From UHGV virus genome UHGV-0143367: a DNA stretch of 39,254 nt, one strand, 5' to 3'. This document shows, piece by piece, positions 4,669 to 37,133 of the stretch (positions within the stretch are counted from its first letter, which is position 1; every line of letters begins with the position of its first letter). The stretch is from a virus. A program made the translations under genes and the position numbers. The notes beneath the pieces are model-generated. The model ran no database searches and was not told the origin of the DNA. It saw only the letters and a list, made by a program, of their open reading frames with translations.

Positions 4669-4688
4669 ATTGGGACCATGGTCCCAAT
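4669..4688. repeat. SopB-box-like palindrome ATTGGGACCATGGTCCCAAT (centromere-like site)
   Basis: Perfect 20-bp palindrome, core identical in arms to the F sopC SopB-binding inverted repeat TGGGACC-NN-GGTCCCA. Confidence 0.7.
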
Positions 4689-4691
4689 AAC

Positions 4692-4713
4692 AAAAAACCC
4701 CGCAGAGCGGGGT
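4692..4713 (-). terminator. Rho-independent terminator downstream of the lipoprotein moron
   Basis: CCCCGC-agag-GCGGGG stem-loop followed by a U6 run on the minus strand. Confidence 0.55.
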
Positions 4714-4736
4714 TTGTGTGGGGGTGGGGGATGAAG

Positions 4737-5114
4737 CTATTTCACGTCATCAGACCATTTGACGGCATTTAAATTGACACCTGTGGTCACATCTTTAAAC
4801 GCGCCACCAAAATAGGCGTAGTAATAAAGTTGGAAGCCGGTGTATCCCCCATAACTATTTTTAGCATTAACACCTACCGGTACTGTATAGGCAAAATGCT
4901 TGCTACTTTCTGTATACGATTTTTTTGGCGTGAAAAATCTATATTTTGCAGAGTCAGGATCTTTCAGCCTTAGATCAATCGTTGACTTTATTTGCTCCTG
5001 GTAATCTGTCGGCAACGGCTCATAAACTGCGCGATTAACTTCTGCTTTTGTCATGGGTTGGACACAACCAGCTAATGCAGCACACATAACAAATGCGGAA
5101 AATAGTTCTTTCAT
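4737..5114 (-). CDS. Lipoprotein moron inserted between tail genes M and L
   Basis: 125 aa with signal peptide and lipobox (MCAALAGC); lower-GC insert inside an otherwise syntenic lambda tail operon; own downstream terminator. Confidence 0.6.
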   Translation of the reverse strand: MKELFSAFVMCAALAGCVQPMTKAEVNRAVYEPLPTDYQEQIKSTIDLRLKDPDSAKYRFFTPKKSYTESSKHFAYTVPVGVNAKNSYGGYTGFQLYYYAYFGGAFKDVTTGVNLNAVKWSDDVK

Positions 5115-5122
5115 ATATCCCT

Positions 5123-5476
5123 CTATGATGATTCGGCTCGATATGCCGTCACAAACGTAACAGATAGAGACATACGAGCAAAATCCATCACGGTAGGTTT
5201 TATCTGGGTGGCACGATATAACCCAAGCTCACCCAGGGGGTTGACCCACTTAAACGCACGTGTTTCGCCATGCTCTCTGAGAAACGTCAGGATGGGGCGG
5301 ATATCCTCATTTAACCCGACAAACGTCAGTGGCCATGACTGCGTTTCGGAGTTAATACCGTCGCCAGTTACCTGCTCGTAACCGTCGCCATATTGCGCTG
5401 ACCGGGTACGAAATTGAATGTCCCCGACAGGACCATTCCTCGGCGACCAGTTGAATGTTTCCAGCGCCATTATCAC
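5123..5476 (-). CDS. M: Tail tip assembly protein M
   Basis: 117 aa; GDGYEQ motif and position between H and L as in lambda. Confidence 0.7.
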   Translation of the reverse strand: MIMALETFNWSPRNGPVGDIQFRTRSAQYGDGYEQVTGDGINSETQSWPLTFVGLNEDIRPILTFLREHGETRAFKWVNPLGELGLYRATQIKPTVMDFARMSLSVTFVTAYRAESS

Positions 5477-8448
5477 GCCCCCTTGATTGCGTTCAGGATC
5501 ATGCCGTTATTCGATAACTCACGGTCCAGCACGCTATAGCAGACCTGCTTAATCTGGGATAGCGCCTCGAGGCTTAGAGCTTCATCACTGGTTTTTCCCT
5601 GGTCTTTGGATTGCTGGGTTGCCGCGCCCTGCTTAATCACCTGCAGCGGGATATTCACCATGACGCGGATATTCCGATTATCGCTGCCGGCATCTTCATT
5701 ACTGGAAGGCCGGGCTATGCTACCACCGACCAAACCGCCGTCTGCATATCCGCTGCCATAGGTCAGCTGGTTCAGGAAGTTCAGCATGCCAGGCTTTTGC
5801 ACGACGTTCTGAGGAACTACCCATTCGCCTTTATGGACCACGCCGGCAACATCGTGCCTACCACCATCACCTGTATAACCACCATCTGCAAAACCAAAAA
5901 ATGACCCAAACCCAGCCGCGTTAATGCCAGCCTTTACAGTCTGCGCAACTAACATTCTGGATAGCATCTGACCGATATCATTGATGACAGATACAGCAAA
6001 TGACTTAAAATCTGCTTTCCCTTTTGAAGCGAACGTCCAGACCATATCACTCATACCATTCATAGTATTTTTCGTGACATCGTAAACTTGCGAATTAACA
6101 TCCTCAGCATCTGTAAACCAATCACTCATAGCCCGTTTAAAACCGGATGCGGCATCTTCCTGTGCTCTAACCTTTTCCTTCGCTGAGCGGCGCACTATAT
6201 TGATCTGCTTCTGCTCCTCATTATCCAGAATGGCCGTCTGTTTTTGGTACTCCCTCGATGCGCTATCCGTAATTTGCTTATCCAATTCCTCACGCAGTTT
6301 TGAGAACCTTTCACGCACTTGCTGCTCAGCAACCAGCTGTTCATACGCATCTGAAGTCATCGTCATCTGAGCAACCCGGTTGCTGTACTCCTGCTGCAAC
6401 TGGATTGTTGAGCGGTACAGCTCCTGATTCTGCTCTTGCATCTGCAGGCCGATTTTCCGCTGCGCGTTGGCTCGGTCCAGACTGGCGTTGATCTGCAGCT
6501 GGTTACGAAGCTCAGTTTCCTGCGCCAGCAGACTGCGCTGGCCAGCGGTCAGGATGCGCTTTTCTTTCAGATCGGCAACTTCCTGATTGAACTGCAGCAG
6601 CTTACGCTCGCTGTTCGTCAGTTCTTCCGTCTGGTCGTTCTGCGTACGCAGCACCGTCTCTTCCTGCTTCAGCTCCTGCAGGCGGCGAGTGGCAGCATCA
6701 TCGCTGTAGGCTTTCTCACGCGCTTTTTTCTGCTCGGCGTACATCTTGTTCACGCCAGCCATCGCCTGCGTGTACTCCGCCGTGCCTTTCGTATAGTTCG
6801 CGTTAACCAGTGCGATAGCATCAGCGCGCTCTTTTTCGCGCGATACGCCCGCTTTCATCAGGCCAGAAAGGGTGTTTTCATCCTTCAGGCGCTTCGTCAG
6901 CTCTTCGCGCTCTTTCTTCCGCTGCTGGTAGAGTTTTTCAGCTTCTTCACGCTGTTTGATGGCGGGGTCTTCGGTTGGCGTCAGATCGACATTGGCACCA
7001 GCGGCCATCGCCTGGGCGGTAGCCATATGCGCATCGCCCATGGTCTTAAAAGCATCAGCCACAAACCCTTTCAGGGACTTCCACGCGCCTTCCAGCACGC
7101 CGACCTGGCTTTCCTGCTCTTTGAGTTTCTGGGAAACGTCATCCATGGCCGCCTGCTGCAGCAGCGCGGTAGCCTCAGTCGTTTTCCCCTGGCGGTTCAG
7201 GGTAACAATCTGATCGACCATACTGCTGTTCAGCAAAATCCCCTGATCGGTCAGCTTTTGCAGCGCGTTCAGCGGGTCGCCGCTGAGACTGGAAAGCAGC
7301 GTAACCAGGTCATCAGAACTCTGGCCAATTTCTTCCATACGGGTGCCAAGCCCCGCCACCTGATCCAGAATATCGCCGCCGAACCCGGCGCCGACAGCGG
7401 CAGTGACCGACTTAACCGCACCGGCGGTGTCGCCCAGGCGGGAAACCAGGTTCTGCAGGTACATCACGTTCATCACGGACTGCTGCCCGGACTTCTGCAA
7501 TGCCTTATTGAATCCGTCGATCTCCGCCTGGCTGTGCGAGAATGCGGTATAAATCGCGGTACCGACGCCGGCAACCGCCATCACGGCAAGGCCGACAGGA
7601 CCGCCGACCATCGCCAGCGCACCACGCAATAACCCGGCACTGGCCGCAGCCGCACGCTGGCCGAGCGAGAGTTCCTGGCTGACAACCGCCAGATTACGGG
7701 TCGATGTGGCCAGCTGCTGCTTACCGTTGGATTCGGCAATATCGGCGGCCAGCACGGCTTTTGTCGCTTCTGCCAGGCTGCCTTTCCCTTTGGCTTCCGC
7801 CAGGTTGGCTTCATTAATCACACGCGAGTTTTTAACGTGCTCTTCCTGATAATCAACCGTCAGCCCGAACTGTTTGTTTACCTCGGCCTGTTTGGCGTAA
7901 TACTCATCGAGTGCGAATGCACGTTCACGATCGGCCTTCGCCGCCTCAATAGTTTTCACAGCGGCGTTCTGTTTGGCGATGGCCTCTTCGCGGAGGCTCC
8001 TGGCGTTCTCAATGACGCCGCGCGCCGCATCAACCTGCGCCGCAGTGAACTCAATCTGGGCCTGTCGCTGGTTCTTCAGGCCATTCACGCTGTTTGATAG
8101 CGCGGTGCTCATACCCTCGCTGAGCGAAGTAACCAGCGCGTTTGCTATAGAACTACCGGCAACGTTACTACCGGCAGAGATGCTGGCCAGCAGGCCGCGC
8201 ATCTCATCAAGCCCGGTCAGACGCTTATCAACCGTGCGGCCAAGTTTGTTAAAATCAGCATCGAGACCGGTGATCCCTTTGCTGACTCCTTCGTATGACT
8301 GGCGGGTATTTTTGGCATCCGCCTGCGCCTTTCTGTTGAACTGTTGCGCCCCACTGTCAGCCGACCGCATCGCATCAGCAAACTGCGATTTGAAGCTGGC
8401 CGAGTTCAGGTGAAGCGCAACAGCCAACGATGCAACATCAGCAGCCAT
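5473..8448 (-). CDS. H: Tail tape measure protein
   Basis: 991 aa, coiled-coil and Ala/Gln-rich low complexity, hydrophobic central segment, Gly-rich C-terminal region; position after G/G-T. Confidence 0.9.
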   Translation of the reverse strand: MAADVASLAVALHLNSASFKSQFADAMRSADSGAQQFNRKAQADAKNTRQSYEGVSKGITGLDADFNKLGRTVDKRLTGLDEMRGLLASISAGSNVAGSSIANALVTSLSEGMSTALSNSVNGLKNQRQAQIEFTAAQVDAARGVIENARSLREEAIAKQNAAVKTIEAAKADRERAFALDEYYAKQAEVNKQFGLTVDYQEEHVKNSRVINEANLAEAKGKGSLAEATKAVLAADIAESNGKQQLATSTRNLAVVSQELSLGQRAAAASAGLLRGALAMVGGPVGLAVMAVAGVGTAIYTAFSHSQAEIDGFNKALQKSGQQSVMNVMYLQNLVSRLGDTAGAVKSVTAAVGAGFGGDILDQVAGLGTRMEEIGQSSDDLVTLLSSLSGDPLNALQKLTDQGILLNSSMVDQIVTLNRQGKTTEATALLQQAAMDDVSQKLKEQESQVGVLEGAWKSLKGFVADAFKTMGDAHMATAQAMAAGANVDLTPTEDPAIKQREEAEKLYQQRKKEREELTKRLKDENTLSGLMKAGVSREKERADAIALVNANYTKGTAEYTQAMAGVNKMYAEQKKAREKAYSDDAATRRLQELKQEETVLRTQNDQTEELTNSERKLLQFNQEVADLKEKRILTAGQRSLLAQETELRNQLQINASLDRANAQRKIGLQMQEQNQELYRSTIQLQQEYSNRVAQMTMTSDAYEQLVAEQQVRERFSKLREELDKQITDSASREYQKQTAILDNEEQKQINIVRRSAKEKVRAQEDAASGFKRAMSDWFTDAEDVNSQVYDVTKNTMNGMSDMVWTFASKGKADFKSFAVSVINDIGQMLSRMLVAQTVKAGINAAGFGSFFGFADGGYTGDGGRHDVAGVVHKGEWVVPQNVVQKPGMLNFLNQLTYGSGYADGGLVGGSIARPSSNEDAGSDNRNIRVMVNIPLQVIKQGAATQQSKDQGKTSDEALSLEALSQIKQVCYSVLDRELSNNGMILNAIKGA

Positions 8449-8656
8449 TTCCTAAGATCCTCAGACAATCAGCGAACTGCTGAGCGCCCTCAGACGGTGC
8501 AACAGCAGGCTGCGGTGATGGTAGTTTTTGTGGTTGTGGTTCGTCGGCGATTTCCGTTTTGAGAAGGTTAAAATAGGCTTCCCAATACGTAAGAATATTC
8601 GCCGGCAGATCACTCAGTTTTCGCGGGTCAGGCTCACCCCAGCGGTCTGCCAGCAT
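8438..8656 (-). CDS. T: T segment of tail assembly chaperone G-T, reached by -1 frameshift from G
   Basis: ORF in the -1 frame relative to G, directly downstream of the slippery heptamer; manual read-through gives ...EAEKKLTNSPRLRLLFMLADRWGEPDP... Confidence 0.7.
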   Translation of the reverse strand: MLADRWGEPDPRKLSDLPANILTYWEAYFNLLKTEIADEPQPQKLPSPQPAVAPSEGAQQFADCLRILGNGC

Positions 8657-8685
8657 GAACAGCAGCCGGAGCCGGGGCGAGTTGG

Positions 8686-9030
8686 TTAGTTTTTTTCCGC
8701 TTCCTCTGGCGTGCCATAGGAATAACGCTGAACCGCGGTGATGGCGGTCAGCAAGTCAGCTGAAGCATGCGCATCCAGCAGCTCCTCCGCCGTCGGCAGG
8801 TCTTTTTTGCCTGGGCGGGTACCGTCTTCATTCACCAACGCCTGCAGGAACAAACTGGCCCCCAGGATGGAGAGTTGGCGTGATGTCTGGCCGTCTTTTC
8901 GGGCCGCATCAACCGTATCGTTATAATTATCCAGCTCGGTATTGGTCAGACGGCGAATAAACACCTTCTGGCCAAGCAGTTTCTTTTCAGTCGTTGTATT
9001 CAATGGGGTGGTGAGGGATTTGTAGTTCAT
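8686..9030 (-). CDS. G: Tail assembly chaperone G
   Basis: 114 aa ORF between major tail protein and tape measure, ending in the slippery site. Confidence 0.75.
   Translation of the reverse strand: MNYKSLTTPLNTTTEKKLLGQKVFIRRLTNTELDNYNDTVDAARKDGQTSRQLSILGASLFLQALVNEDGTRPGKKDLPTAEELLDAHASADLLTAITAVQRYSYGTPEEAEKN
8689..8695 (-). other. Programmed -1 ribosomal frameshift slippery site A_AAA_AAC at the 3' end of G
   Basis: Minus strand reads GCG GAA AAA AAC TAA; the heptamer AAAAAAC sits immediately before the G stop codon. Confidence 0.7.
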
Positions 9031-9092
9031 GACGATGATCCTGATGATGAATGAGTGAAGGGAAGCCGGGCCGGGTCAGCTATTAAATGGCG

Positions 9093-9566
9093 TTATTCGC
9101 CGCCAGCATCAGCTGGAGTAACGGTCCATTTCAGTTTGTTCTGCTTGCCGTAAACCTCCAGCTGCAGCACCTTGCCTTTCGGTGAATCGACGGTCTGCAT
9201 GCTCCAGCCGGCAAGAACGAGCTGAATCTCCGCCAGACGGCGGTTCGGGAACTGCATGAAGAATACGACCGTTTCTTTCGCGTCAGCGGAGGCCAGCAGC
9301 GCCTGCTGTGCTACATCATCTGGGTCATCAATAAAGACCAGCGTTTTATCTTCGCCTTCGCCCATGTCAGCCATATATTTCGGCTCGGTATCAATCAGGC
9401 GGGTAACGTCGATAAACGTCCCTTTGTTGCCTGTGGCTCCGATGGCCGTTGCCGACTGCAACAGCTTCGCCGTTGCAAGTGTTGCGCCAACTGTGCCGTA
9501 AGACACGCGGGTACCCGCCGGGAGAGATGCATACTCCGAGGGGGATTTGATATTTTCGTCAGCCAT
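9093..9566 (-). CDS. V: Major tail tube protein (V-like, without C-terminal Ig domain)
   Basis: 157 aa, position immediately upstream of G; Shine-Dalgarno present. Confidence 0.65.
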   Translation of the reverse strand: MADENIKSPSEYASLPAGTRVSYGTVGATLATAKLLQSATAIGATGNKGTFIDVTRLIDTEPKYMADMGEGEDKTLVFIDDPDDVAQQALLASADAKETVVFFMQFPNRRLAEIQLVLAGWSMQTVDSPKGKVLQLEVYGKQNKLKWTVTPADAGGE

Positions 9567-9578
9567 TTTTATCTCCGA

Positions 9579-9989
9579 TTATTGACCTTCCAGCCCGATG
9601 CGGATTTCGGTTGCCAGCACCTGCAGGATTTTTTGAACGTTGTAATCCATCGCCGGACGAATAAACGGCTTGGCCACCTGTTTTACGGTGCCAAACTCTT
9701 GCGCCAGGGCTTTCATGTGATGGAATTTGCTGGGACCGACACGAAGCGTGACGATCGTGTTATAGCGGGATGTTTCTGCTACGTTGGTGCTGCGGATTTT
9801 GATGCTGTCGCGCATGTGCGGCCCGATGCTTTCCTCATCGAAACCGGCGCTGCTAATCATGTCCAACTGAACGATTTTCATCGCCTCACGTCCAGCATCA
9901 CGTAGCAACTTCACACCCACTTTTTTGTCGATATCTTCCAGAATCCGATCGAAATCCTTCCCGGTCGGGAATTTAATGTTCATCTCCAT
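9579..9989 (-). CDS. Tail terminator / tail completion protein (HK97 gp10-like)
   Basis: 136 aa, synteny between neck proteins and major tail protein. Confidence 0.45.
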   Translation of the reverse strand: MEMNIKFPTGKDFDRILEDIDKKVGVKLLRDAGREAMKIVQLDMISSAGFDEESIGPHMRDSIKIRSTNVAETSRYNTIVTLRVGPSKFHHMKALAQEFGTVKQVAKPFIRPAMDYNVQKILQVLATEIRIGLEGQ

Positions 9990-9994
9990 AGGAT

Positions 9995-10375
9995 TTACTC
10001 TGGAACCGTAAACGTAAAATCGCGGATGAGGCGGTACTGTACGCGTCCGCTGGTCAGGGTGACTTTATCCTGCTGGATGCCACCGCGTTCAACATACTGG
10101 ACCGGATAGCTTTCAAGCTCACCGTGTACCAGCGTTTTCCACTCGTCCCATAACGCCTTATCCAGCGCCAGCATGTGGGTGTAGTCGTCAACGATGTACA
10201 AATTTACCTGCATCCGTACATCACAAAGCCCCGTACGCACCAGACCATCGCCGACCGGTGGATCGGAAATTCGCTGAAACGTGACCCCTTCCTGCACGCT
10301 GTCAGGCAGCAGCAGCGGGTACGCTTTCAGGCCCGTTATGCGCTCCAGCGCAGGTTTAATTGCCAGCTCGATCAT
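9995..10375 (-). CDS. Neck / tail completion protein
   Basis: 126 aa, synteny in head-tail joining module. Confidence 0.4.
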   Translation of the reverse strand: MIELAIKPALERITGLKAYPLLLPDSVQEGVTFQRISDPPVGDGLVRTGLCDVRMQVNLYIVDDYTHMLALDKALWDEWKTLVHGELESYPVQYVERGGIQQDKVTLTSGRVQYRLIRDFTFTVPE

Positions 10376-10700
10376 GGCGCCCGTCAGCCTCCCCCGTGAT
10401 GATCATGCGGTCCGGAAGTCGGTCAACGTTGCGAACGGTATAAACCCGGTCCTTTGTGGCCACCTTCCAGTCGATATCCACTTCACGCGGATAGAGAGTA
10501 AATTCACAGGTTTCGACCACCTGCTGCTGGTCCAGCGTCCGGATTTTCCGTCCTGAAATCAGCTCTTTCTTCGCCCAGGCTTTCCCCGCCTGCACTTCCT
10601 GCGCCGGAAGCGGCTCACCCAGCGGGCCTTCGCCAATAACGATGTAGCTGAACGACAGCCGGCAATTCAGCTCGCCGGGTTGCAGTGGTTTCTGGCTCAT
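10356..10700 (-). CDS. Head closure / head-tail adaptor protein
   Basis: 114 aa, synteny. Confidence 0.45.
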   Translation of the reverse strand: MSQKPLQPGELNCRLSFSYIVIGEGPLGEPLPAQEVQAGKAWAKKELISGRKIRTLDQQQVVETCEFTLYPREVDIDWKVATKDRVYTVRNVDRLPDRMIITGEADGRHDRAGN

Positions 10701-11026
10701 ACTGTGTGCTCCATCAGCGGAAACAGCAGGTAAGAGACGCCAAGTTCTGACGGCGTTCCTTCGCCGGCCCCTGTCGGGTTGAGATACCAGTGGGCGACCA
10801 TCATCTGCATGGCCAGCTGGATATCGTCATCAATCAGGTACGCCGGCTGGCCTTCCGGAAGTTTGTCCAGTTCATCCTGCGATTCTGCCAGGCGACAGTA
10901 ATACGAGCGCTCGATACTGCGACGCGCGGCACCAATCAGGCGCGTCAGCAGATCATCATGCTCGGTAAAATCCAGCTCGAGGCGCAGCTGGACCTTAACT
11001 TCATCCAATGTCGGTTTCATGGTCAT
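10697..11026 (-). CDS. Head-tail connector protein (gp6-like)
   Basis: 109 aa, synteny directly after the capsid module. Confidence 0.45.
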   Translation of the reverse strand: MTMKPTLDEVKVQLRLELDFTEHDDLLTRLIGAARRSIERSYYCRLAESQDELDKLPEGQPAYLIDDDIQLAMQMMVAHWYLNPTGAGEGTPSELGVSYLLFPLMEHTV

Positions 11027-11333
11027 CGTCTCCCCGACGAGGATTCAACGCACGCTTCGCATCTTCTGGCCAGGCTGCAATTTTGCGCGTAACCAGCTCT
11101 TCAGCGTATTCAGCATCGAATGCAGCGACATCAGCGCGCGAATAGCGATGATATGGCCCCAGGAACACAACAGCGCGACGTTCCGGCGCGGATTTCACCG
11201 CTGGGACCACGGTCCCAATTTCATCACCGGTAATCACACCGTCGACAATATTGGAGGTATCAATAATCGCATCAACACCATCAACGGAAGTTGTGGTGTC
11301 CGCGTCTGTTTCTTTTTTAGGTTTTCCAGCCAT
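11001..11333 (-). CDS. Hypothetical head-module protein with an embedded SopB-box palindrome
   Basis: 110 aa ORF between major capsid and connector genes; the motif TGGGACCACGGTCCCA (11202-11217) encodes ...GTVVP... in frame. Confidence 0.4.
   Translation of the reverse strand: MAGKPKKETDADTTTSVDGVDAIIDTSNIVDGVITGDEIGTVVPAVKSAPERRAVVFLGPYHRYSRADVAAFDAEYAEELVTRKIAAWPEDAKRALNPRRGDDDHETDIG
11202..11217. repeat. SopB-box-like inverted repeat TGGGACC-AC-GGTCCCA, identical to the F sopC core
   Basis: Direct sequence match; lies inside a coding region. Confidence 0.65.
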
Positions 11334-11414
11334 GGTCTATCTCCAGCTAAAGTGAATAAAAAAGGCCCGCTTAGCGGGCCTTTTCAGCATCGAACGAATC
11401 ACTATCGCGAACAA

Positions 11415-12704
11415 TTACCAGAGAACGCCGGTACCGAGCGCCAGACCTTCGACGTGACGGAAACCAATATCGTGCTCAACGATAACGCGGATCAGGGACT
11501 GGTTACGGGCGAACGCAGAAACGGTGTTGCCATCCGCATCGATGTAAGTTGCTTCACGCGAGAAATCGACCTTCATGTCTCCCTCTTCACCGATCAGCAC
11601 ATCGCTGAAGTCAGCGAAGTAAATCTCTGACTCGTTACCGCCGGTACCGAGGTTCGCCGGGATCGCGCTGGTACGCTCAATCGGATAGCCCTTCAGCATA
11701 CCGGTGGCCATTTCTGGATAGACCTTGTTCCCGTTGCCATCACGCAGACCAAACAGCTTCATGTAGGTACGGTTGGACATACCCCAGCCGCACTGCAGCA
11801 TGTTGCTGTTGCCATCCATGGTCATCAGGATAAGCCCATCCAGATAGGTGTCGATGTTCTGCAGCGTTGGGTCAGCATCCTTATCCCATGCTTTGAAGCG
11901 TGTCGCAGCGGTCGCAACTGCTTTCATGCCCTTCGGCGTGTCAGCGGTGCCATCATCGCGCAGGAAGGCTTTATCTTCGCGGGTAGCAATACCGCTGATG
12001 ATATCGCCCAGCACCAGCTGCTCAACGGAGAACCCGGCACGACCAATCAGCTGGTTCGACAGCGGAACCATACAGATCATCGTTTTCGCGCTGAGTTTCA
12101 CATCATCAAAGCTGGCGCCGCTGGCTTTCACATCCTTCCCTTCACCGACATAGCTGGCAGTCGAACCACCGGCCAGGCGTGGGAGCGCCAGATTGCCGTT
12201 CGGCAGTGGCACGGAGCGCGCACCCAGCTTACGAACGATGGTGCGGTCGCGCAGCAGCTCGATGACCTCGTTCTGCATGTTGGTCGGAACCAGCGCGCCG
12301 CCAGAACCGGCAGCAGTGCTGATCGCCATCGCGACCTGATTATCGTTCAGTTCCTTAGCGGCAAAGATCTGCGCATCGCCCAGGTTACCACCACCGGCGG
12401 CGATAGCCATAACCATGCGGGTCATGCTCGCGCCCTTGTACTGAGCGGGTTCGGCTTTCACATGAATCTCCGGCGCGCCAGTACCCATTGCGGATACCGG
12501 AACCGCTACCGCTGCTGCGGCGCGTTCTGCCGCTTCCAGACGGGTGATTTGAGCGGTGATATCGGTGAACTGTTGCTGCAGGCTGTGAAACTGAGTCAGT
12601 TGCTCGGCGGACAATACGCCGCCGCCCAGCTCAACCTGAGCCAGAGCCTGAACCTGATCGTTAATACCCGCGCGCTGACGACGTAATTCTTCAATCTGAG
12701 GCAT
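11415..12704 (-). CDS. Major capsid protein, HK97 fold, with N-terminal coiled-coil delta/scaffold domain
   Basis: 429 aa; N-terminal ~100 aa coiled coil then capsid-like body; strong terminator-like hairpin downstream (11360-11395); position after protease. Confidence 0.85.
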   Translation of the reverse strand: MPQIEELRRQRAGINDQVQALAQVELGGGVLSAEQLTQFHSLQQQFTDITAQITRLEAAERAAAAVAVPVSAMGTGAPEIHVKAEPAQYKGASMTRMVMAIAAGGGNLGDAQIFAAKELNDNQVAMAISTAAGSGGALVPTNMQNEVIELLRDRTIVRKLGARSVPLPNGNLALPRLAGGSTASYVGEGKDVKASGASFDDVKLSAKTMICMVPLSNQLIGRAGFSVEQLVLGDIISGIATREDKAFLRDDGTADTPKGMKAVATAATRFKAWDKDADPTLQNIDTYLDGLILMTMDGNSNMLQCGWGMSNRTYMKLFGLRDGNGNKVYPEMATGMLKGYPIERTSAIPANLGTGGNESEIYFADFSDVLIGEEGDMKVDFSREATYIDADGNTVSAFARNQSLIRVIVEHDIGFRHVEGLALGTGVLW

Positions 12705-12775
12705 GATTTTTCTCTCTTTTTAGACATAAAAAAGCAGCCATATGGCTGCTTTCAGGGTGACGCGTAGGCGTCGGG

Positions 12776-16900: not shown

Positions 16901-16916
16901 TGGGACCGTGGTCCCA
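16901..16916. repeat. SopB-box-like inverted repeat TGGGACC-GT-GGTCCCA at the terS/terL junction
   Basis: Direct sequence match; overlaps the terS stop codon. Confidence 0.65.
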
Positions 16917-19839: not shown

Positions 19840-19859
19840 ATTGGGACCATGGTCCCAAT
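19840..19859. repeat. SopB-box-like palindrome ATTGGGACCATGGTCCCAAT
   Basis: Perfect 20-bp palindrome, same sequence as 4669-4688 and 32501-32520. Confidence 0.7.
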
Positions 19860-23317: not shown

Positions 23318-23335
23318 TTGGGACCATGGTCCCAA
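23318..23335. repeat. SopB-box-like palindrome TTGGGACCATGGTCCCAA
   Basis: Perfect 18-bp palindrome in an AT-rich intergenic region. Confidence 0.7.
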
Positions 23336-28808: not shown

Positions 28809-29044
28809 CTTATTTTCCTTTATAACGACGATTAGCATTGGCCCTGGCCTTATCCATGGCTTGCTGACGTTGGCTCTTTGTATTTGCCTTTGCTACTGGC
28901 TGCACGCTGGGTTCTGCCTGCCGTTTCGCTGGCGGGGAACGCAACCGCGCAATAAGTAGAAATAGCGATGAGTGAAATCACCAGAATCGTGATAAGTGCG
29001 ATTCGTCCCGAAAAGGTTATCTGCCATAATTACCTCATCCGATT

Positions 29045-29062
29045 TTGGGACCATGGTCCCAA
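29045..29062. repeat. SopB-box-like palindrome TTGGGACCATGGTCCCAA
   Basis: Perfect 18-bp palindrome, intergenic. Confidence 0.7.
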
Positions 29063-29066
29063 TGAG

Positions 29067-29369
29067 TTAAATATTCATCTTTTTTGCAAGACTTTCATTT
29101 TGTTGCTCTGTATAGCGCTTTAACCAAAGCTCCTGAATATGCTGGTCACCTGGTTTATTTGCGCCACACCACTCCGCAATAACGGCATTTCGACACCAGT
29201 CAGGATGTGTTCTGAATCCGCAAGATGGACAAAACATCAAATATTCATTGCGTAGCTCAGATCTAACTAATTTCGGTTTTACTGCGTGGTGATGCATTAC
29301 TTGTTTGCAAAGGCAGGAAGGAATTTCACCGCCTGTTGCTGATATGCTTCTTCCGTAATTGGTCGACAT
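29067..29369 (-). CDS. Small Cys/His-rich (zinc-ribbon-like) protein
   Basis: 100 aa with CLC...H, CPSCG, C...C clusters; function unknown. Confidence 0.4.
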   Translation of the reverse strand: MSTNYGRSISATGGEIPSCLCKQVMHHHAVKPKLVRSELRNEYLMFCPSCGFRTHPDWCRNAVIAEWCGANKPGDQHIQELWLKRYTEQQNESLAKKMNI

Positions 29370-29991: not shown

Positions 29992-30634
29992 ATTTGCCCC
30001 CTGCTTGATGGCCTAGCGGGCTTAGCGCACTAAGTTCAACGTGGTCCGGTTTAATGCCGGTGGCCATTTCTATATTCAGGATTTCCCGATAGAGGTATGA
30101 CGACAACTCATACAGGCGGTTCTGCAGCTGCTTCAGCGCGTGCTGGTCATCACTGCCATCGTATACACCGTCCTGGGCTGGCGCTGAGTTGGCGAGAACG
30201 GCACCGAATTTCACAGTGATCTCGTCAATTTCAGCGTCGACAGAATCAACACGAATACGGTTGTACTTAGGCATGCGGACCCATTGCAGACCCTGCATTG
30301 CGGCCAGCTTTTGAGAGCACTTATTACGGTACTCTTCCGGAAGACATGACAACCACGTTAACACCCAGTCTGCAGGCATCGGCGTATCACCAGCCAGGAC
30401 GCGCTGTGCACGCTTAATGCAACGGCTACGCCAGCGCATGTAATCCGTGACATTGATGCCTTCAGACCCCATATCAACAAGTCCCTGGAGTTCCAGAGCC
30501 GGAATCAAGCGCATTGTAGAGAATTGTGCGACACTGCCGCCGGTTTCATCGAGCATCCGCAAGGTTGCCCGTATAACCACTGATGACATTGTGTCTCGCG
30601 ATGGACGTTTATTCTGCCCCATGGTCTGAGTCAT
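29981..30634 (-). CDS. Hypothetical early protein downstream of cro (candidate regulator)
   Basis: Start at ATG 30634 with AAGGA Shine-Dalgarno; overlaps cro 3' end. Confidence 0.4.
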   Translation of the reverse strand: MTQTMGQNKRPSRDTMSSVVIRATLRMLDETGGSVAQFSTMRLIPALELQGLVDMGSEGINVTDYMRWRSRCIKRAQRVLAGDTPMPADWVLTWLSCLPEEYRNKCSQKLAAMQGLQWVRMPKYNRIRVDSVDAEIDEITVKFGAVLANSAPAQDGVYDGSDDQHALKQLQNRLYELSSYLYREILNIEMATGIKPDHVELSALSPLGHQAGGKYAV

Positions 30635-30815
30635 CCTTTTCTTTATGCAGTGTGTAATCAGATTTGAGTCGGCCATTTGTCTTAACTTCCAGCTCGTACT
30701 GCCTAAGCATGGGGACATCCTCTCCCCATTTGTAGATCGCAACGCGAGTACAACCGAGCAGTTCGCAGAGTTTGTTTATGCCGCCGCAGGCGGCTATGGC
30801 GTCTTTTGTTTTCAT
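30609..30815 (-). CDS. cro: Cro-like HTH regulator
   Basis: 68 aa; HTH segment (AIAACGGINKLCELLGCTRVAIYKW); divergent from the repressor gene. Confidence 0.7.
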   Translation of the reverse strand: MKTKDAIAACGGINKLCELLGCTRVAIYKWGEDVPMLRQYELEVKTNGRLKSDYTLHKEKDDSDHGAE

Positions 30816-30930
30816 GAAATGATACTAACCAAGCTATACAAGTTTTGTAAAGTGTACTTGTCAAAATTTACATTAATATTCCCTTTAGCCTTGTATAGCT
30901 AGCTATACAGATTTGATTTAATATCTCTCT
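30816..30930. promoter_or_regulatory. Divergent cro/cB promoter-operator region with 18-bp perfect palindrome TGTATAGCTAGCTATACA (30892-30909) and half-site AGCTATACA (30832-30840)
   Basis: Minus-strand -35 TTGACA (30859-30864) with 17-bp spacer to TTGTAT (30836-30841); palindrome lies ~20 bp upstream of the apparently leaderless cB ATG. Confidence 0.5.
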
Positions 30931-31560
30931 ATGGAAAAACGTGGTGATTGGCTGAAGGCTCGCCGTGAAGAGCTGAAGAAGCGAAATAAATCAAAGTTCT
31001 CAGTGAGAGCTGTTGCCGAACGCATCGGTATTACCGGTGCTGGCCTCTCGCATCTCGAAAACAGCGATGCTATGCCCGCGTTAGATCTGGCTATCAAGCT
31101 GGCGCGAGAGCTGGGCCGTCCTGTTGAATGGATCTTAACCGGTGCTGGCGGGGATGTGTTCCGTGGAGTCCCTGTTATTGGTTCTACTGCTACCGGTCCC
31201 AATCTGGAAATGATAAACAGCGGTCTGGCTCAAAACTGCCGGGAATTCGTTGATATCAATGTACAGGATGCAGCCTTATACGGCCTGATGGTCGATAACG
31301 ACGTTGCAGCGCCGTATCATATCGGTGAAGTACTGATCGCAGACCCTAATCGCGAGCCGGTGACAGGGGAAGATGTGGTGGTAGTCACAAAATCTGGCAA
31401 TGATACGTTTATTAAGATGTTAGCGTCTAAACGTGATGGCAAAGTGTTTCTTGACGCGCCGAACGACAGATCTCAGCGCGTGATAATCGATCTTGACGAA
31501 ATTATTTTGATTCATCCCGTTATCTGCGTGGCTAAATCTATAGCAGTTAAGGCCAGATAG
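30931..31560 (+). CDS. cB: Prophage repressor CB (CI-like HTH-XRE with C-terminal S24/LexA-like domain)
   Basis: 209 aa; N-terminal HTH (FSVRAVAERIGITGAGLSHLEN), C-terminal beta-rich domain; divergent from cro. Confidence 0.75.
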   Translation: MEKRGDWLKARREELKKRNKSKFSVRAVAERIGITGAGLSHLENSDAMPALDLAIKLARELGRPVEWILTGAGGDVFRGVPVIGSTATGPNLEMINSGLAQNCREFVDINVQDAALYGLMVDNDVAAPYHIGEVLIADPNREPVTGEDVVVVTKSGNDTFIKMLASKRDGKVFLDAPNDRSQRVIIDLDEIILIHPVICVAKSIAVKAR

Positions 31561-31580
31561 TAAATTTTAGTAACCAAGGT

Positions 31581-31610
31581 TTGTCAAATGCACTTGTCAG
31601 AGGCTATTAT
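31581..31610 (+). promoter_or_regulatory. Sigma70-like promoter (TTGTCA-18 bp-TATTAT) directed toward repA
   Basis: -35 TTGTCA at 31581-31586, -10 TATTAT at 31605-31610. Confidence 0.4.
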
Positions 31611-31703
31611 GTGGCGTGATAGCAATGATGAGTAAGAACTTGCCCCAGAGGTATAGTGCCAAGTGAGCACTTTTTAACCACCTCTGGATTCAGACAAATA
31701 AAA

Positions 31704-31731
31704 AGCCCCGGATGTGGCGTCCAGGGCTTTT
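31704..31731 (+). terminator. Terminator-like hairpin in repA leader
   Basis: AGCCCCGGA ... TCCAGGGCT stem (one mismatch) followed by TTTT. Confidence 0.4.
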
Positions 31732-31841
31732 CGGTGAAACAGGTCTAGAGTCAGCTCTTGTCGAAATGTGATTGGCGTTCACTAACAAAGATGCTAATCA
31801 AGACACAAGTGTGGAGTTGATTGTAGTTCGTTTCACCTGCA

Positions 31842-31868
31842 CTGCGCAACTGCGCAGCGTCTTTTTTT
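31842..31868 (+). terminator. Terminator-like hairpin plus T7 run ending ~10 nt before the repA start codon
   Basis: CTGCGC-aact-GCGCAG stem followed by CGTCTTTTTTT, then GGTGA Shine-Dalgarno and ATG. Confidence 0.4.
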
Positions 31869-31878
31869 GGGTGAAATA

Positions 31879-34800
31879 ATGAATTTAACGGAATATTTTC
31901 AACACAAATTTAACTCTGACCCGTTTTCGCTGCTTGATGCAGCATCAAATGAACTGAGTGATCTCGCGAACGCTGCCGGTATCGACTGGCATAAATGCGC
32001 TGGAGATATTCAGCTTTCTGCCTCTCGCGGTTCCGCTGAAAAATTCACAAAGTATGCCCACCATGGTCCTGCCGTTACTGATCCAAAGCTGAAAGGCAAG
32101 GTTGAGATTTACTCCCGCATGGAGTGTTCTCAGGACGGTATCAAATACCCGTTCATCAACTTTGTCTGTAAAGGTGCTGACGCTGGCGTATGGAGTGGCT
32201 TCCAGTTCCTTATCTCTGAATACCGTCGATACAAAGAACAGAACGGTGGGACCGTGGTCCCACTGTCTGCGCGTGAACTGGAGCAGCGTAAACGTGCTGA
32301 GGCGCGCCGCCATGAACGTGAGCGCCAGCAGGCTATCTCTGTGTTTATGGAGTCGCAGCGCCGCGACGCTGACCTGAACGAATACCTGCAGTTCTCCGCC
32401 GCATTCGCCAAGGCACCGGCAGAAGATGGTTCATGGCCATATGCGGTGAAGAAAGGCATCAGCTCTGTTTTCTCATACTGTAACGTAAGACGCGTAACCC
32501 ATTGGGACCATGGTCCCAATTCTAAAGCGGTTAAAAAACAAACTGTTATGGCGATTCCGCTGTCGCATATTGATGACCGTCGGGAAGACCGTGAATCTCG
32601 CGTTGGGCCGATTGTTGGCTGGCAGCGAATCACCGAGAGAAACGACAAGCTGCAGACCCGCGCTGTAGATTCCGGTGACTTTGCCGGTTCGTGTCACATC
32701 ATCGGCCAGCTGCGCGGCGCAACCAGGATCTGTGTTGTTGAAGGGTTCGCGACTGGTGCCAGCGTGTTCGCTGTAGCGAAAAAACGCTTTGATGCTGTTG
32801 TTGTGGCTGTGTCAGCAAATAACGTTATCAAGGTTGTTGATCAGCTGGTCAGCCTGTACCCAGGCATGGAAATCTGGTGCGCACTGGATAACGACCAGAA
32901 ATCGGCGCGGAATGGAAAAGGCAATACCGGGTTAAGAGTCGGCATCGATGTGATGAAGAAATTCCCGCAGGTCCGCTGCACATTCCCGATTTTCGACAGC
33001 AGCGAAACCGAATTAAGCGACTTTAACGATCTCCACCAGGCGCGCGGCGCCACCGAAACCAACCGCCAGCTGTTTTCAAAACAGAACCGCCTGCAGCTGC
33101 CAGGCAATTCCTTTGATGCTGAAATGCTGTCTCTGGCCGTTGCGCCGGTTTCCGATCGCCGCGCGTTCTCGCGCCAGCTGGTACGCTGCATTGATGCCGG
33201 CATGATGCAATGCCCGTCCAAGTTATCCCCGCAGGAGCTGATCTCGCTGATAAAAATGAAGCTGGACCAGCTCGGCGCCGACAAAGCGCTGCACGGTACC
33301 GTGTATAACCGCGTTAAACGCGCCTTCAAACAGAAATGCGACAAGGCCCAGGCTTTCCGATCATTCAGCGAGCGCGTAACGAACCCGGCAATACGCCCCG
33401 ACCACATCACCTATAAGCGGTTTGAAACACCCCACATGACCAAGGAAGTGCTGGATTACATCAAAGCACTGAGCGGCCCGGTAATCGTCCGTGCCGGCAT
33501 GGGGTCGGGCAAATCCAAACACTTGCTGCGCCCTATGATGCACAGCGCGCAGCGCGGCGTTTCGGTGGCGCACCGCGTTTCGCTGATTGGTGGCCTCTGG
33601 GACATGATGACGCGTGCCGACGATGGCCGTCGCATGAATTGCGACATCCTGCACTACCAGGACCCCGGCTATCAGGAGCTGGCGCCGTATGCCAGCAAAC
33701 TGACAATTTGTATTAACTCTATCGTGAAGGGCTGCTGGCAGCCACTGATGCGCAAACACGATTTCTTTGGCCTGGATGAAGCCACCCAGGGCCTGCGCGC
33801 CACGCTTTCCGGTAAAGCGATGGCGCACCCGGTTGATGTATTCAACCGTCTTATCGACTCTATCGCGTACAGCGATGACCACGCGCTGCTGGTTGATGCA
33901 GACGCCAGCGATATCCTGGTAGACCTCTGCGAACTGGCGCTGGCCAAACGCGAACAAACAGGCCTGTCGACCTGGACACAGATCCACGTCATCGAGCTGC
34001 CGGTTGATGTGAAGTACAAAAAAGCCGATGGCACGCGCGAAGCGCGCCGCGTACTTTACACCGACACCGATCGCATCATGGTTGAAGTACTGAAAGCCGT
34101 GGCTGCCGGCGAAAAATTCCTGCTGGCCACTGACTCAACCAACTTTGCCGAACAGTTGCTACTGCAGCTGCGCGACCGCTGGCCAGAAAAGAAATGGCTT
34201 TACGTCAGCCAGGACACAAAGCCGGATCAGGAAGTTGTGGCGTTTACCGACGCGCCGAACCAGCGCGCTAAACTCTACGATGGCCTTATTTATAGCCCGG
34301 CTATCAGTTCTGGCGTATCGATCGAAGAACGGCACTTCACCCGCCATTTCGGCTGCTTCTGCGGCCAGGTAGTGCCGTCCGACGCCATTCAGATGCTGCG
34401 CCGCGACAGGACCGCCACCGAATTTATGGTCGGCCTGAACAAGCTGCCTGGCGTACGCGAAGAGAACGCCGACAACATCCGCCGTGGGTTCCTGCAGGCA
34501 CTGCTGGAAACTGCCGAGATAAACGAAGAATTTACCGACGCCATCCTGGATGGCGACCGCCTTTCCCTTGGTCTGGCGGACACCACCTATGTCCGCATGA
34601 AATTTAAAGTTGCCGCGATGGAGGCCCAGGCCAGAAACGATTTCGCCAACAACCTGATCTGCATTCTCTACGCCGATGGCTATAACGTCAGCCACTTGGC
34701 CGAAGACTCGCTGGCCAGCGAAACCGGCAAAGAACTGCGTAAGGCATCGAAAGAGCGGGTCTGGGATATGACCGTTCTGCGCCATATGGAAGTGGAAACC

Positions 34801-35868
34801 CCGGACGAAGACGAACGCGACGAACTGATGGGCAAGCGATCACTATCTGAAGATGAGCAGGCGCAACTGGCGCGCTGGGATATCGAAAAAGAGTTGATGC
34901 TGGATGTCAGCCCGGAATCTCTGAAATTCCTGCTCGATGGCGGGAAGAAGAAACTGACGCTGGCCGAACTGATGACGATGGATGAAATGACCGCCGCACG
35001 CATTGACCGTGAGCAGCAGGCTTTCACGTTCACCTACCAATTCCGCAAAGGGCCGCGTAACGAATTTGTAACGATCACCGCGCTCAACCGCGAAGCAGCT
35101 GATGCGCAGTTCGACCGCATGCAGCCAGGAATAACCGGCTACACCGTCCAAAGCCGCCCGGTGATGGAAGTAACCCAGCGTACGTACGCATCGCTGCACC
35201 GTAAGGCCGCCAGGGAGTATTTCTCCACCTGCGGTATTAACCCAGATACCGGCGCCGGTGAAGCCAGCCAGGAAGGTATGGCGGAAGCTATGGCCAAACT
35301 TATGGACCCAACCACCGCGGATCGTTTCAACAACGTCCTGCGGTTCGGTGGCTATATAAACCCTAAAGGCCGCCAGAAACGCCCCGAGACGGTTTTCAAA
35401 CAGATCTGTGAGGCATTCGGTTACGCGACTCAGAAACGCCGCCTACCGCGTTCACAGGGCCTCGGTTACGTGTGGTCAATCGTCCCCGAATCCTGGGAAT
35501 TCATTCACGGAATTCTGGCGCGTCGCGCCGAGGCATCACTGTCGTTTGTCCAGATGAAACTGGATGTGGGGGCACCGGAAGAACCGGATCTCGATTGCCG
35601 ATCAAATATAGATGTAAGATCCCAATCTGGATCTGCTGAGACGGCATTTATTGAGGCAACGCTGACGACGATTGAAGAGGCTATCGCTGCGATGCCGGTG
35701 CCATTTGCATGGCTGAGAACCGCACTGACGCCGGAAGAACTGGCACAACTCGCGACTATGCCGCCACGGTTGATACAGGCGACGGTTGCCGGGCTGTTTA
35801 TGGCTGACAATATGTGGCAACTATCAGATGGCCAATACAACGAACTGAAGCGGTTGCAGGCGGTTTAA
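31879..35868 (+). CDS. repA: Replication protein RepA (primase-helicase) of N15-type linear plasmid-prophage
   Basis: About 1329 aa from ATG 31879 (ORF track begins at upstream TTG); Walker A GMGSGKSK; size and position next to cB and telN as in N15. Confidence 0.85.
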   Translation: MNLTEYFQHKFNSDPFSLLDAASNELSDLANAAGIDWHKCAGDIQLSASRGSAEKFTKYAHHGPAVTDPKLKGKVEIYSRMECSQDGIKYPFINFVCKGADAGVWSGFQFLISEYRRYKEQNGGTVVPLSARELEQRKRAEARRHERERQQAISVFMESQRRDADLNEYLQFSAAFAKAPAEDGSWPYAVKKGISSVFSYCNVRRVTHWDHGPNSKAVKKQTVMAIPLSHIDDRREDRESRVGPIVGWQRITERNDKLQTRAVDSGDFAGSCHIIGQLRGATRICVVEGFATGASVFAVAKKRFDAVVVAVSANNVIKVVDQLVSLYPGMEIWCALDNDQKSARNGKGNTGLRVGIDVMKKFPQVRCTFPIFDSSETELSDFNDLHQARGATETNRQLFSKQNRLQLPGNSFDAEMLSLAVAPVSDRRAFSRQLVRCIDAGMMQCPSKLSPQELISLIKMKLDQLGADKALHGTVYNRVKRAFKQKCDKAQAFRSFSERVTNPAIRPDHITYKRFETPHMTKEVLDYIKALSGPVIVRAGMGSGKSKHLLRPMMHSAQRGVSVAHRVSLIGGLWDMMTRADDGRRMNCDILHYQDPGYQELAPYASKLTICINSIVKGCWQPLMRKHDFFGLDEATQGLRATLSGKAMAHPVDVFNRLIDSIAYSDDHALLVDADASDILVDLCELALAKREQTGLSTWTQIHVIELPVDVKYKKADGTREARRVLYTDTDRIMVEVLKAVAAGEKFLLATDSTNFAEQLLLQLRDRWPEKKWLYVSQDTKPDQEVVAFTDAPNQRAKLYDGLIYSPAISSGVSIEERHFTRHFGCFCGQVVPSDAIQMLRRDRTATEFMVGLNKLPGVREENADNIRRGFLQALLETAEINEEFTDAILDGDRLSLGLADTTYVRMKFKVAAMEAQARNDFANNLICILYADGYNVSHLAEDSLASETGKELRKASKERVWDMTVLRHMEVETPDEDERDELMGKRSLSEDEQAQLARWDIEKELMLDVSPESLKFLLDGGKKKLTLAELMTMDEMTAARIDREQQAFTFTYQFRKGPRNEFVTITALNREAADAQFDRMQPGITGYTVQSRPVMEVTQRTYASLHRKAAREYFSTCGINPDTGAGEASQEGMAEAMAKLMDPTTADRFNNVLRFGGYINPKGRQKRPETVFKQICEAFGYATQKRRLPRSQGLGYVWSIVPESWEFIHGILARRAEASLSFVQMKLDVGAPEEPDLDCRSNIDVRSQSGSAETAFIEATLTTIEEAIAAMPVPFAWLRTALTPEELAQLATMPPRLIQATVAGLFMADNMWQLSDGQYNELKRLQAV
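32247..32262. repeat. SopB-box-like inverted repeat TGGGACC-GT-GGTCCCA inside repA
   Basis: Direct match; encodes ...GGTVVP... in the RepA frame. Confidence 0.65.
32501..32520. repeat. SopB-box-like palindrome ATTGGGACCATGGTCCCAAT inside repA
   Basis: Perfect 20-bp palindrome; encodes ...HWDHGPN... in the RepA frame. Confidence 0.7.
35585..35640. other. Candidate replication-origin element inside the 3' end of repA: four GATC sites in 47 bp with inverted repeat AGATCC...GGATCT
   Basis: GATC at 35587, 35600, 35618, 35630; the N15 ori maps within the 3' part of repA (recalled, not verified here). Confidence 0.3.
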
Positions 35869-35878
35869 GGGGATATCT

Positions 35879-36220
35879 ATGTCGACTACTGATTTTTTGA
35901 AAACACTGGATCGTGTCCAGCTGCAGTTCTGCCGGAATAAGTGCGACGAAATGCTTCGTGCTATCCAGGAAGAACAAAAGAAGGTCGCCTGGGCGGTAAC
36001 TGATGGCTCGGTCAACTACGGCTGGTACCGAACTGAGGACTACCTTAAAGCTGTCGAATGCCTGGTACGCGAAGCTGAGAAGCGCTGGAACGAAGAGACT
36101 GAAGAAGACAAAGGCAACCCGCAAACTCGCGGCTGGCTGAACTTTTCTATTCAGGGCCAGCGCCTGCCGGCGTCCGAATACGAAGCGCTGTTTGCTGATG
36201 GCCAGTGGGGGTTAACGTGA
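35879..36220 (+). CDS. Hypothetical protein, first gene of operon downstream of repA
   Basis: 113 aa; strong Shine-Dalgarno (AAGGGGA) 10 nt after the repA stop. Confidence 0.45.
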   Translation: MSTTDFLKTLDRVQLQFCRNKCDEMLRAIQEEQKKVAWAVTDGSVNYGWYRTEDYLKAVECLVREAEKRWNEETEEDKGNPQTRGWLNFSIQGQRLPASEYEALFADGQWGLT

Positions 36221-36597
36221 TCTACAAATATGAAAACTTGTGTGAGAAAGGATTCGTTCGAATTCCCGTAAGCAGGGCTACGCATAACAAAATGCTGCCA
36301 AACTGCAAGCAACGATTTGGAGCAAAAATTGAGTATTACTTCGAGCCAGAATCTCAGATATTCGAGGCACAGTATTTCACTTCGGCATGGATGAAGGTTT
36401 TGCTCATCGTTGTCATGTTTCTTCCTGCAATCGTCATGCAGGGTGTTCCCAGAACTATTCGTGACACTGGCGATTTAATTCACCAACGGGAAAGAGGGAA
36501 ATTTTCGTCTGATAGATGGTTTTTGAAACGTGAAAAGACGACAGATGGCGCACTTGAAAGTTATATCGACCAGAAACTACGTGAGGTAGGGGCATGA
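36205..36597 (+). CDS. Hypothetical membrane protein (non-ATG start)
   Basis: GTG start at 36205 or 36217 overlapping the upstream stop; one transmembrane helix (WMKVLLIVVMFLPAIVMQGV). Confidence 0.4.
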   Translation: MGVNVIYKYENLCEKGFVRIPVSRATHNKMLPNCKQRFGAKIEYYFEPESQIFEAQYFTSAWMKVLLIVVMFLPAIVMQGVPRTIRDTGDLIHQRERGKFSSDRWFLKREKTTDGALESYIDQKLREVGA

Positions 36598-36977
36598 TTG
36601 ATATTAACGTAAAAAAGCTAACTGACTACGATCTGGATGAGCTTAAGCAAGATATTGCACGAGAAATTGAACGCCGCGCCAGTGGCCCGACCCGCGTCGT
36701 TTATGTGGTGACTGAGTTTGGAGAGCATCGGGCCTTTGCTGATTTTCGCTGCGCGGCGATCTGCTTTTCTGACATAGCTCAATCTGTTCTGGAAGATGCA
36801 GGGACCAAAGAAGGAACGGAAATGTTTTATATGAATAAAGGTACCCTGCTTTATGGTATCAGACCTGTAGAAATGACGCTGAATGACTTTGAGTTGAAAG
36901 TTGAGCAGAAGTATTTCGACGATGTGTGCTACGAAAAGCGGCTGCAGGAAATGTTTCCAGAAACGGAGCTTAAATAA
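36594..36977 (+). CDS. Hypothetical protein
   Basis: 127 aa; ATGA overlap with upstream stop indicates translational coupling. Confidence 0.45.
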   Translation: MIDINVKKLTDYDLDELKQDIAREIERRASGPTRVVYVVTEFGEHRAFADFRCAAICFSDIAQSVLEDAGTKEGTEMFYMNKGTLLYGIRPVEMTLNDFELKVEQKYFDDVCYEKRLQEMFPETELK

Positions 36978-37111
36978 TTATTTATCGCAGAGGATGAACG
37001 AGGAAATTTTCGCAAAACATCCGGTAGAAATATTGGTGACAGTTTTCGGCATATAATTCAGCCGGATGCCGTTAGAGGTTCGTCCCTACGGGCTGGATAG
37101 GTCGGTTGTAA

Positions 37112-37133
37112 AACCGGGACCACGGTCCCGGTT
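37112..37133. repeat. SopB-box variant AACCGGGACC-AC-GGTCCCGGTT
   Basis: 10-bp arms around an AC spacer; inner arms GGGACC/GGTCCC as in the other copies, outer position differs (C/G instead of T/A); convergent intergenic region. Confidence 0.55.

Follow-up and report, generated by a model that had tools for sequence, protein, structure and literature searches.

The 39,254-nucleotide stretch analysed here, the virus genome UHGV-0143367 (the window), represents about 39 kb of a new telomere phage resembling N15 and PY54, viewed from its telL end, and it carries scattered copies of the 16-bp SopB box TGGGACC-NN-GGTCCCA. Together with a further copy found just beyond the window, these boxes are very probably the centromere sites (equivalents of parS or sopC) of the type Ia SopAB system of a PY54-like linear plasmid-prophage. 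The reading is based on the enrichment of the boxes, their purine-pyrimidine (Pu-Py) centres, the linked sopAB genes, the conserved DNA contacts of SopB, the co-variation of box and SopB helix, the synteny with N15, and a decayed tail box in a plasmid of the other specificity; the sites themselves, their enrichment, synteny, linkage to sopAB and co-variation with the helix were observed directly.

SopB boxes in the window and the sopAB genes linked to them

A pattern search for the exact box found eight copies of TGGGACCNNGGTCCCA in the window (at 4671, 11202, 16901, 19842, 23319, 29046, 32247 and 32503), and none was found in 100 dinucleotide-preserving shuffles of it, the comparison that an earlier, sequence-only reading of the window had proposed. 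Allowing mismatches added two variants, TGGGACCACGGTCACA at 695 and CGGGACCACGGTCCCG at 37115 (0.11 expected), both deviating solely at arm position 1 or 3. All ten sites fit the relaxed functional core GNGACC-RY-GGTCNC (0.01 expected), and every centre is Pu-Py (AT, AC or GT). The sequence-only reading had counted nine copies and one one-mismatch copy; the latter (695-710) was recovered by the mismatch search, but the presumed ninth exact copy, at 37112, is a symmetric position-1 variant, leaving eight exact boxes and two variants. The starts it gave at 4669, 19840, 23318, 29045, 32501 and 37112 are correct as starts of the extended palindromes, and all five of the perfect AT-centred palindromes of 18-20 bp that it described are present (20 bp at 4669, 19840 and 32501; 18 bp at 23318 and 29045). 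Six of the ten boxes are intergenic and four lie inside coding sequence; their flanks have only a weak AT preference in common. The sites are as follows, with their counterparts in N15, phiKO2, PY54, vB_YenS_P840 (P840) and the Salmonella enterica plasmid pAR-0403 (NZ_CP044185.1):

695..710, no strand: variant box TGGGACCACGGTCACA in the tail-tip J gene, one mismatch at arm position 3; no counterpart in PY54, P840 or pAR-0403
4669..4688, no strand: 20-bp perfect palindrome ATTGGGACCATGGTCCCAAT, intergenic, a site specific to this lineage, flanked by a terminator (4715-4695, -) and the start of the tail L gene (3907-4656, -)
11202..11217, no strand: exact box with AC centre, in a 110-aa open reading frame (ORF; 11001-11333, -) downstream of the capsid gene; counterparts PY54 6566, P840 6668
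16901..16916, no strand: exact box with GT centre, between the stop of TerS (16918-17376, -) and TerL; counterparts PY54 508, P840 513, pAR-0403 28417
19840..19859, no strand: 20-bp perfect palindrome right after the stop of a nucleoside 2-deoxyribosyltransferase (NDT)/DUF4406-like gene (19859-20173, -), a terminator coming next (19834-19815, -); counterparts of the box at 19842 are N15 IR4, phiKO2 48618 ('putative plasmid partitioning site') and PY54 44409
23318..23335, no strand: 18-bp perfect palindrome just upstream of a conserved late-promoter/terminator region (terminator 23244-23226, -) that precedes a DNA methyltransferase gene (22023-23084, -); counterparts of the box at 23319 are N15 IR3, phiKO2 45385, PY54 40976 and pAR-0403 34191
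29045..29062, no strand: 18-bp perfect palindrome downstream of Q (29326-29991, -) and a Lar-like gene (29067-29369, -), upstream of an exonuclease/RdgC-like gene (27870-28838, -); counterparts of the box at 29046 are N15 IR2, phiKO2 40346 and PY54 34394
32246..32263, no strand: exact box inside repA, codons ~123-128 (G-T-V-V-P); counterparts of the box at 32247 are N15 IR1, phiKO2 37906 (RepA there reads A-T-V-V-A) and PY54 31240
32501..32520, no strand: 20-bp perfect palindrome inside repA, codons ~209-214, 256 bp from the 32247 box
37112..37133, no strand: variant box CGGGACCACGGTCCCG with 10-bp arms and a symmetric arm-position-1 change (T>C / A>G), between the convergent DUF5448 gene (36594-36977, +) and telN; counterparts of the box at 37115 are PY54 26513 and P840 26451, both exact boxes downstream of tel

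The window holds neither sopA nor sopB (tblastn E>0.3), and the sequence-only reading had placed the pair beyond J. It was located there on public contigs, many of which turned up in an exact-sequence lookup of two window proteins. Three of them (L005, L006 and L007) match window 6-13207 at 99.8% identity and two (L036 and L037) match window 27141-39253 at 99.98%; L006 and L037 belong to a single 46,511-bp contig. Genes on these contigs run in the order J, DUF6453, tail fibre, sopB (393 aa), sopA (389 aa), a TacA/GNAT toxin-antitoxin pair, telRL and telN. The sopB gene lies ~4.3 kb outside the window on its left side, near telR. Both proteins exceed the cut-offs of NCBIfam equivalogs (SopA 752.8 bits vs 725 for NF010259; SopB 444 bits vs 274 for NF010252), and SopB residues 72-241 match TIGR00180. 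The two genes overlap and are co-oriented, and their content is that of a type Ia ParABS (SopAB) system, with a Walker-type ParA bearing an N-terminal extension and a helix-turn-helix ParB bearing the ParB N-terminal (CTP-binding) domain in one operon. The helix region of SopB on the 99.98%-identical contigs reads AENISRKIIVRC, plus ELSAR; the protein aligns to the F SopB structure 3MKY (E=5e-36) and keeps all the F base-contacting residues (S189, R190, K191, I192, R195 and R219). An eleventh box, TGGGACCGCGGTCACA, lies ~50 bp inside sopB on the linked contigs, as in PY54, and is the only one in the sopB-proximal 6.5 kb (L036 1-6530). Tandem 43-45-bp repeats next to sopB (at least two, typically 8-17), which characterise an F-type sopC array, were absent.

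Between sopA and telRL (L036 5185-6046) are genes for a TacA-like antitoxin and a GNAT (TacT-like) acetyltransferase toxin, a second plasmid-maintenance module beside the partition operon.

Specificity class and synteny of the boxes

The arms of the boxes are the same as those of the F sopC SopB site TGGGACCACGGTCCCA (PMC3597684, PMC2910045), as the sequence-only reading had held, and F SopB was crystallised on the AT-centred version of the box, as found in the element (PMC2910045). Binding by F SopB requires arm positions 2, 4, 5, 6 and 7 and a Pu-Py centre, and tolerates changes at positions 1 and 3, of which position 3 matters least (PMC3177203); the variant boxes in the element, PY54 and P840 all depart at position 1 or 3 only. 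With eight exact boxes, two position-1/3 variants, Pu-Py centres in all ten, and a SopB carrying the F-type helix and R219, the element has the hallmarks of F-type SopB sites. The systems compared fall into two classes:

F-type: helix N-I-S-R-K-I-I, box TGGGACC; F, PY54, P840, Salmonella pAR-0403 and this element
N15-type: helix G-[IV]-D-R-N-I-[VI], box TGCGACC; N15, phiKO2, PhiR46_1, 48ST307 and Enterobacter asburiae pJBIWA007_2

Across ten systems one base per half-site tracks three helix residues, and the comparison yields a clean natural specificity switch. The specificity of SopB resides in its recognition helix, and swapping the helix swaps the specificity (PMC2910045); F SopB is non-functional on N15 sites (PMC7205306). 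The N15 sites IR1-4 read TGCGACC..GGTCGCA (PMC7205306, PMC2910045) and have been used experimentally as centromeres (PMC7205306). Zero sites of this sequence occur in the window, and on sequence the boxes of the element belong to the F/PY54-type class, not to the N15 type. The analogy with N15 drawn by the sequence-only reading thus holds for the dispersed layout and fails for the sequence of the four N15 sites. Like the element, N15 (IR1-IR4) and phiKO2 (four sites) have single inverted repeats dispersed on a linear plasmid-prophage and no array adjacent to sopAB; they differ from it at arm position 3 (TGCGACC vs TGGGACC) and in the helix (IDRNIV vs ISRKII), and genomes of the N15 type have no more than 4-6 sites, which all lie in the replication and lysis arm.

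Among the closest known systems are those of PY54 and P840 (SpyA/SpyB), whose box is identical (TGGGACC-PuPy-GGTCCCA), each with eight exact copies and three position-3 variants, and whose SopB homologue (393 aa) shares its recognition helix, and 61% identity overall, with that of the element. The three genomes have nine positions in common: the TerS/TerL junction, the ORF after the capsid gene, the 5' end of sopB, the region downstream of tel, two sites in repA 256 bp apart, and sites after Q/Lar, upstream of the late methyltransferase and after DUF4406/NDT. The DNA is only ~71% identical, in patches, and the tail modules are unlike: that of the element is lambda-like (L, K, I, J) and has two boxes (4671 and 695), whereas PY54 and P840 have a 15.7-kb box-free gap in this region; conversely, the PY54 boxes at 39870 and 41121 are missing from the element. 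The Salmonella plasmid pAR-0403 resembles the element in its G-type box (nine sites), its helix (ISRKIIM), its 256-bp repA pair and its TerS/TerL and late-promoter sites, and differs in an 18-kb box-free tail region and in a DNA identity to the window of only ~73%. With F sopABC the element has in common the 16-bp box, the Pu-Py centre rule, the DNA contacts of SopB, a SopA of the same equivalog and a comparable number of boxes (12 in F, 10 of them functional, vs ~11). In F, which is circular, these sit in a single tandem array of 43-bp repeats immediately downstream of sopB, whereas in the element there is no array, the boxes lie 0.26-6.5 kb apart on a linear replicon, several of them in genes, and SopB has a C-terminal extension of ~70 aa, unlike that of F.

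Dispersed sites of the F consensus were already noted on three phage genomes in 2011 (Pillet et al., PMC3177203), and the 2023 P840 paper does not discuss the sites. The arrangement is thus already known from PY54 and its relatives, and the box density, which the sequence-only reading took for a dense version of the N15 layout, is normal for the F/PY54-type class: N15-type genomes have four boxes (N15, phiKO2, pJBIWA007_2), five (PhiR46_1) or six (48ST307), and F-type genomes have nine (pAR-0403), eleven (PY54, P840 and this element) or at least 13 (a Rouxiella badensis contig), two to three times as many. What the element provides is a well-resolved addition to a small, little-studied class, the telomere phages with a dispersed F SopB box; the known picture of the Sop partition mechanism is unchanged. 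The addition bears on the distribution of ParB loading sites on linear replicons, on phage-plasmid incompatibility with IncF plasmids and on site annotation.

Box positions keep their synteny between genomes of only 65-75% identity, and all four N15 sites have positional homologues in the element (IR1 at 32247, in repA; IR2 at 29046, after Q and the Lar-like gene; IR3 at 23319; IR4 at 19842). In an alignment of six genomes at the IR3 position, the box is followed by the conserved late-promoter and terminator unit, and its sole change is the class-defining base. RepA residues follow the embedded box, reading G-T-[VT]-V-P in F-type genomes and A-T-V-V-A in N15-type ones; since the RepA sequence co-varies with the box in this way, two residues of this essential protein are dictated by the cis site. 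Further boxes of the F-type class sit between TerS and TerL, in the ORF that follows the capsid gene, downstream of telN and inside sopB, and the 256-bp repA pair is present in the window, PY54, P840, pAR-0403 and the viral contig L015 and absent from N15-type genomes. The element, with its G-type box at eleven dispersed, largely syntenic sites that include the repA pair and the 5' end of sopB, has the features of the PY54-type class, in which ~9-11 such sites are usual.

The homologue of the 4671-4686 site in E. asburiae pJBIWA007_2 (L034 ~19285-19300) is a decayed box, CAGGAGCACGGCCCCC, in which 10 of 16 bases match. This plasmid has a tail module ~75% identical to that of the element and a Sop system of N15-type specificity. 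The decayed copy fits a box kept at the tail site only where the cognate SopB is present, and points to a transfer of the tail module between specificity classes, followed by erosion of the box in pJBIWA007_2.

A scan of the genome collection with the 18-mer TTGGGACCATGGTCCCAA gave, among Enterobacterales, only Rouxiella badensis and Pantoea piersonii, plus single chance matches in unrelated metagenome-assembled genomes. The Rouxiella badensis contig NZ_MRWE01000038.1 (47.9 kb; L020/L028) has its at least 13 boxes partly arranged as four pairs 37-38 bp apart, and Pantoea piersonii (L030) has four boxes within 500 bp; both arrangements may be intermediates between the dispersed and array layouts.

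Proposed function of the boxes and alternative explanations

In the proposed mechanism, where homology to F and N15 is the basis for SopB binding, for spreading and for centromere activity, a SopB dimer would bind each 16-bp box through its F-type helix-turn-helix, and would then load and spread to form partition complexes, by analogy with ParB/SopB of F. SopA, a Walker-type ATPase, would position the complexes on the nucleoid and thereby secure a copy for each daughter cell, and the 11 single boxes scattered along the whole replicon would take the place of an F-style array of 10-12 boxes. Placement is mostly at operon boundaries, with two boxes in repA, one in J, one in a small ORF of the head region and one in sopB.

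Some points weigh against this assignment. The sopAB sequence comes from near-identical contigs, the gene pair being outside the window. In L037 (GCA_032558115.1, 1363-3810) no sopB was called and sopA is 373 instead of 389 aa, which may reflect a frameshift or a damaged operon, so that the Sop system may be defective in some isolates. Finally, eleven sites far exceed what partition needs, single N15 or F boxes being said to suffice for it, and some boxes may therefore serve another purpose.

That surplus, and the intergenic position of six of the ten window boxes beside terminators or promoters (4671 by the terminator 4715-4695, 19842 by the terminator 19834-19815, 23319 upstream of the late-promoter/terminator unit), would be expected if the SopB sites served mainly phage gene expression, through spreading and silencing at operon boundaries or help to late transcription, and not segregation. 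The N15 Sop system reportedly facilitates late gene expression. We regard this as an improbable main function: four boxes are in coding sequence, away from promoters, and such activity would not exclude partition, being an added role rather than a true alternative. A second role of the boxes in transcription is plausible, given the many boxes that adjoin promoters or terminators and the reported N15 effect on late genes. Far less probable still is a reading in which the palindromes have nothing to do with SopB and form hairpins in RNA or DNA, for instance as intrinsic terminators or processing sites. Two boxes, at 16901 and 32247, were flagged as terminator-like, with T-rich tracts after them on the minus strand, and N15 IR4 was first annotated as a putative terminator stem-loop. 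A T tract follows only two of the ten boxes, however, and the genuine terminators adjoin the boxes rather than lie in them, on which grounds the terminator reading was rejected. Pairing of all seven arm bases would moreover leave a sterically poor 2-nt loop, four boxes are within ORFs, and the 16-bp sequence is invariant while its flanks differ and co-varies with the SopB helix, which a hairpin would not predict. Nor were compensatory stem changes that preserve pairing seen across relatives; what the boxes do show is the symmetric G to C class switch at position 3, the likewise symmetric T-to-C change at position 1 (37115) and, at position 3, changes in a single arm. Chance copies, a dispersed mobile repeat or a palindrome related to restriction-modification can be considered effectively refuted by the shuffles and the synteny. 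Each box does hold two GGWCC (AvaII-type) sites, yet 100 shuffles gave no copy and positions are syntenic at 65-75% genome identity; the mobile-repeat version was rejected on the flanks, which are unrelated apart from their weak AT preference.

At the 16901-16916 box the minus-strand T tract is TTTTTT, following on the coding strand, and it is not conserved in PY54.

Under the partition reading, the spacing of the boxes invites a more tentative proposal. In prophage coordinates the gaps are 2.1, 4.6, 0.26, 3.2, 5.7, 3.5, 2.9, 5.7, 6.5, 4.0, 5.0 and 3.0 kb; with boxes placed uniformly, a largest gap of at most 6.5 kb in 46.5 kb would have P≈0.004, and the coefficient of variation of the gaps gives P≈0.003, in a post hoc test on one lineage with a crude null. 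The sole unusual point is the two extra boxes of the tail module (4671, intergenic by a terminator, and 695, in J), a module that is box-free over 15-18 kb in PY54, P840 and pAR-0403; spacing in the element is much more even because of these two boxes and of the missing counterparts of PY54 39870 and 41121. Even spacing as a trait of the family was rejected, since PY54, P840, pAR-0403 and N15 all have gaps of 15-25 kb. It is conceivable, though on balance doubtful, that selection in this lineage spaced the SopB loading sites so that no part of the replicon is more than ~3.3 kb from a box, giving a quasi-holocentric molecule with a SopB condensate over its whole length, telomeres included. If so, even coverage might aid the segregation or untangling of a linear replicon with hairpin ends, or keep transcription of the whole prophage quiet, and a co-resident F-like plasmid with the identical box would cross-react, leading to incompatibility or titration of SopB.

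Element identity and genome context

The window contains a protelomerase gene, a tel palindrome, a gene for a primase-helicase type RepA, a cB/cro/Q immunity region and siphovirus structural genes, the gene set of an N15-like telomere phage. In addition to telN, repA, cB (a CB-like repressor), cro and Q, and the head and tail genes (TerS, TerL, capsid, tape-measure protein, tail L, K and I, with J represented by its 5' part), it includes genes encoding a Lar-like protein, an exonuclease and methyltransferases. The features that define the replicon are:

31879..35868, +: RepA, primase-helicase type replication protein, 1329 aa, host of two boxes
37141..39042, -: protelomerase TelN, 633 aa, all four TelK/ResT domains matched; marks a telomere phage
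39201..39254, centre 39227/39228: perfect 54-bp tel palindrome, the telL hairpin tip plus 27 nt of fold-back read-through

The window ends at the plasmid telomere, since its last 54 bp are the telL hairpin read through by the assembler. Contig L005 (93 kb) is an inverted dimer about telR (at about 20520), and contig L040 is an inverted dimer about telL; this assembly signature is consistent with covalently closed hairpin ends. The full linear plasmid has a size of ~46,540 bp. Its closest annotated relatives are phiKO2, PY54 and linear plasmids of Klebsiella, Salmonella and Enterobacter (71-75% identity, patchy); megablast against INPHARED phages and PLSDB plasmids gave nothing above ~75% identity except short lambdoid segments, and against complete E. 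coli genomes zero matches.

One of the window's segments, of ~120 bp (19694-19822), is 90-94% identical to the lambdoid phages mEp390, mEp237, HK639 and Salmonella FSL SP-016, an identity far exceeding that of the rest of the window. It adjoins the terminator and box at 19842, its counterpart is labelled a terminator in some lambdoid records, and it may be a conserved regulatory or RNA element.

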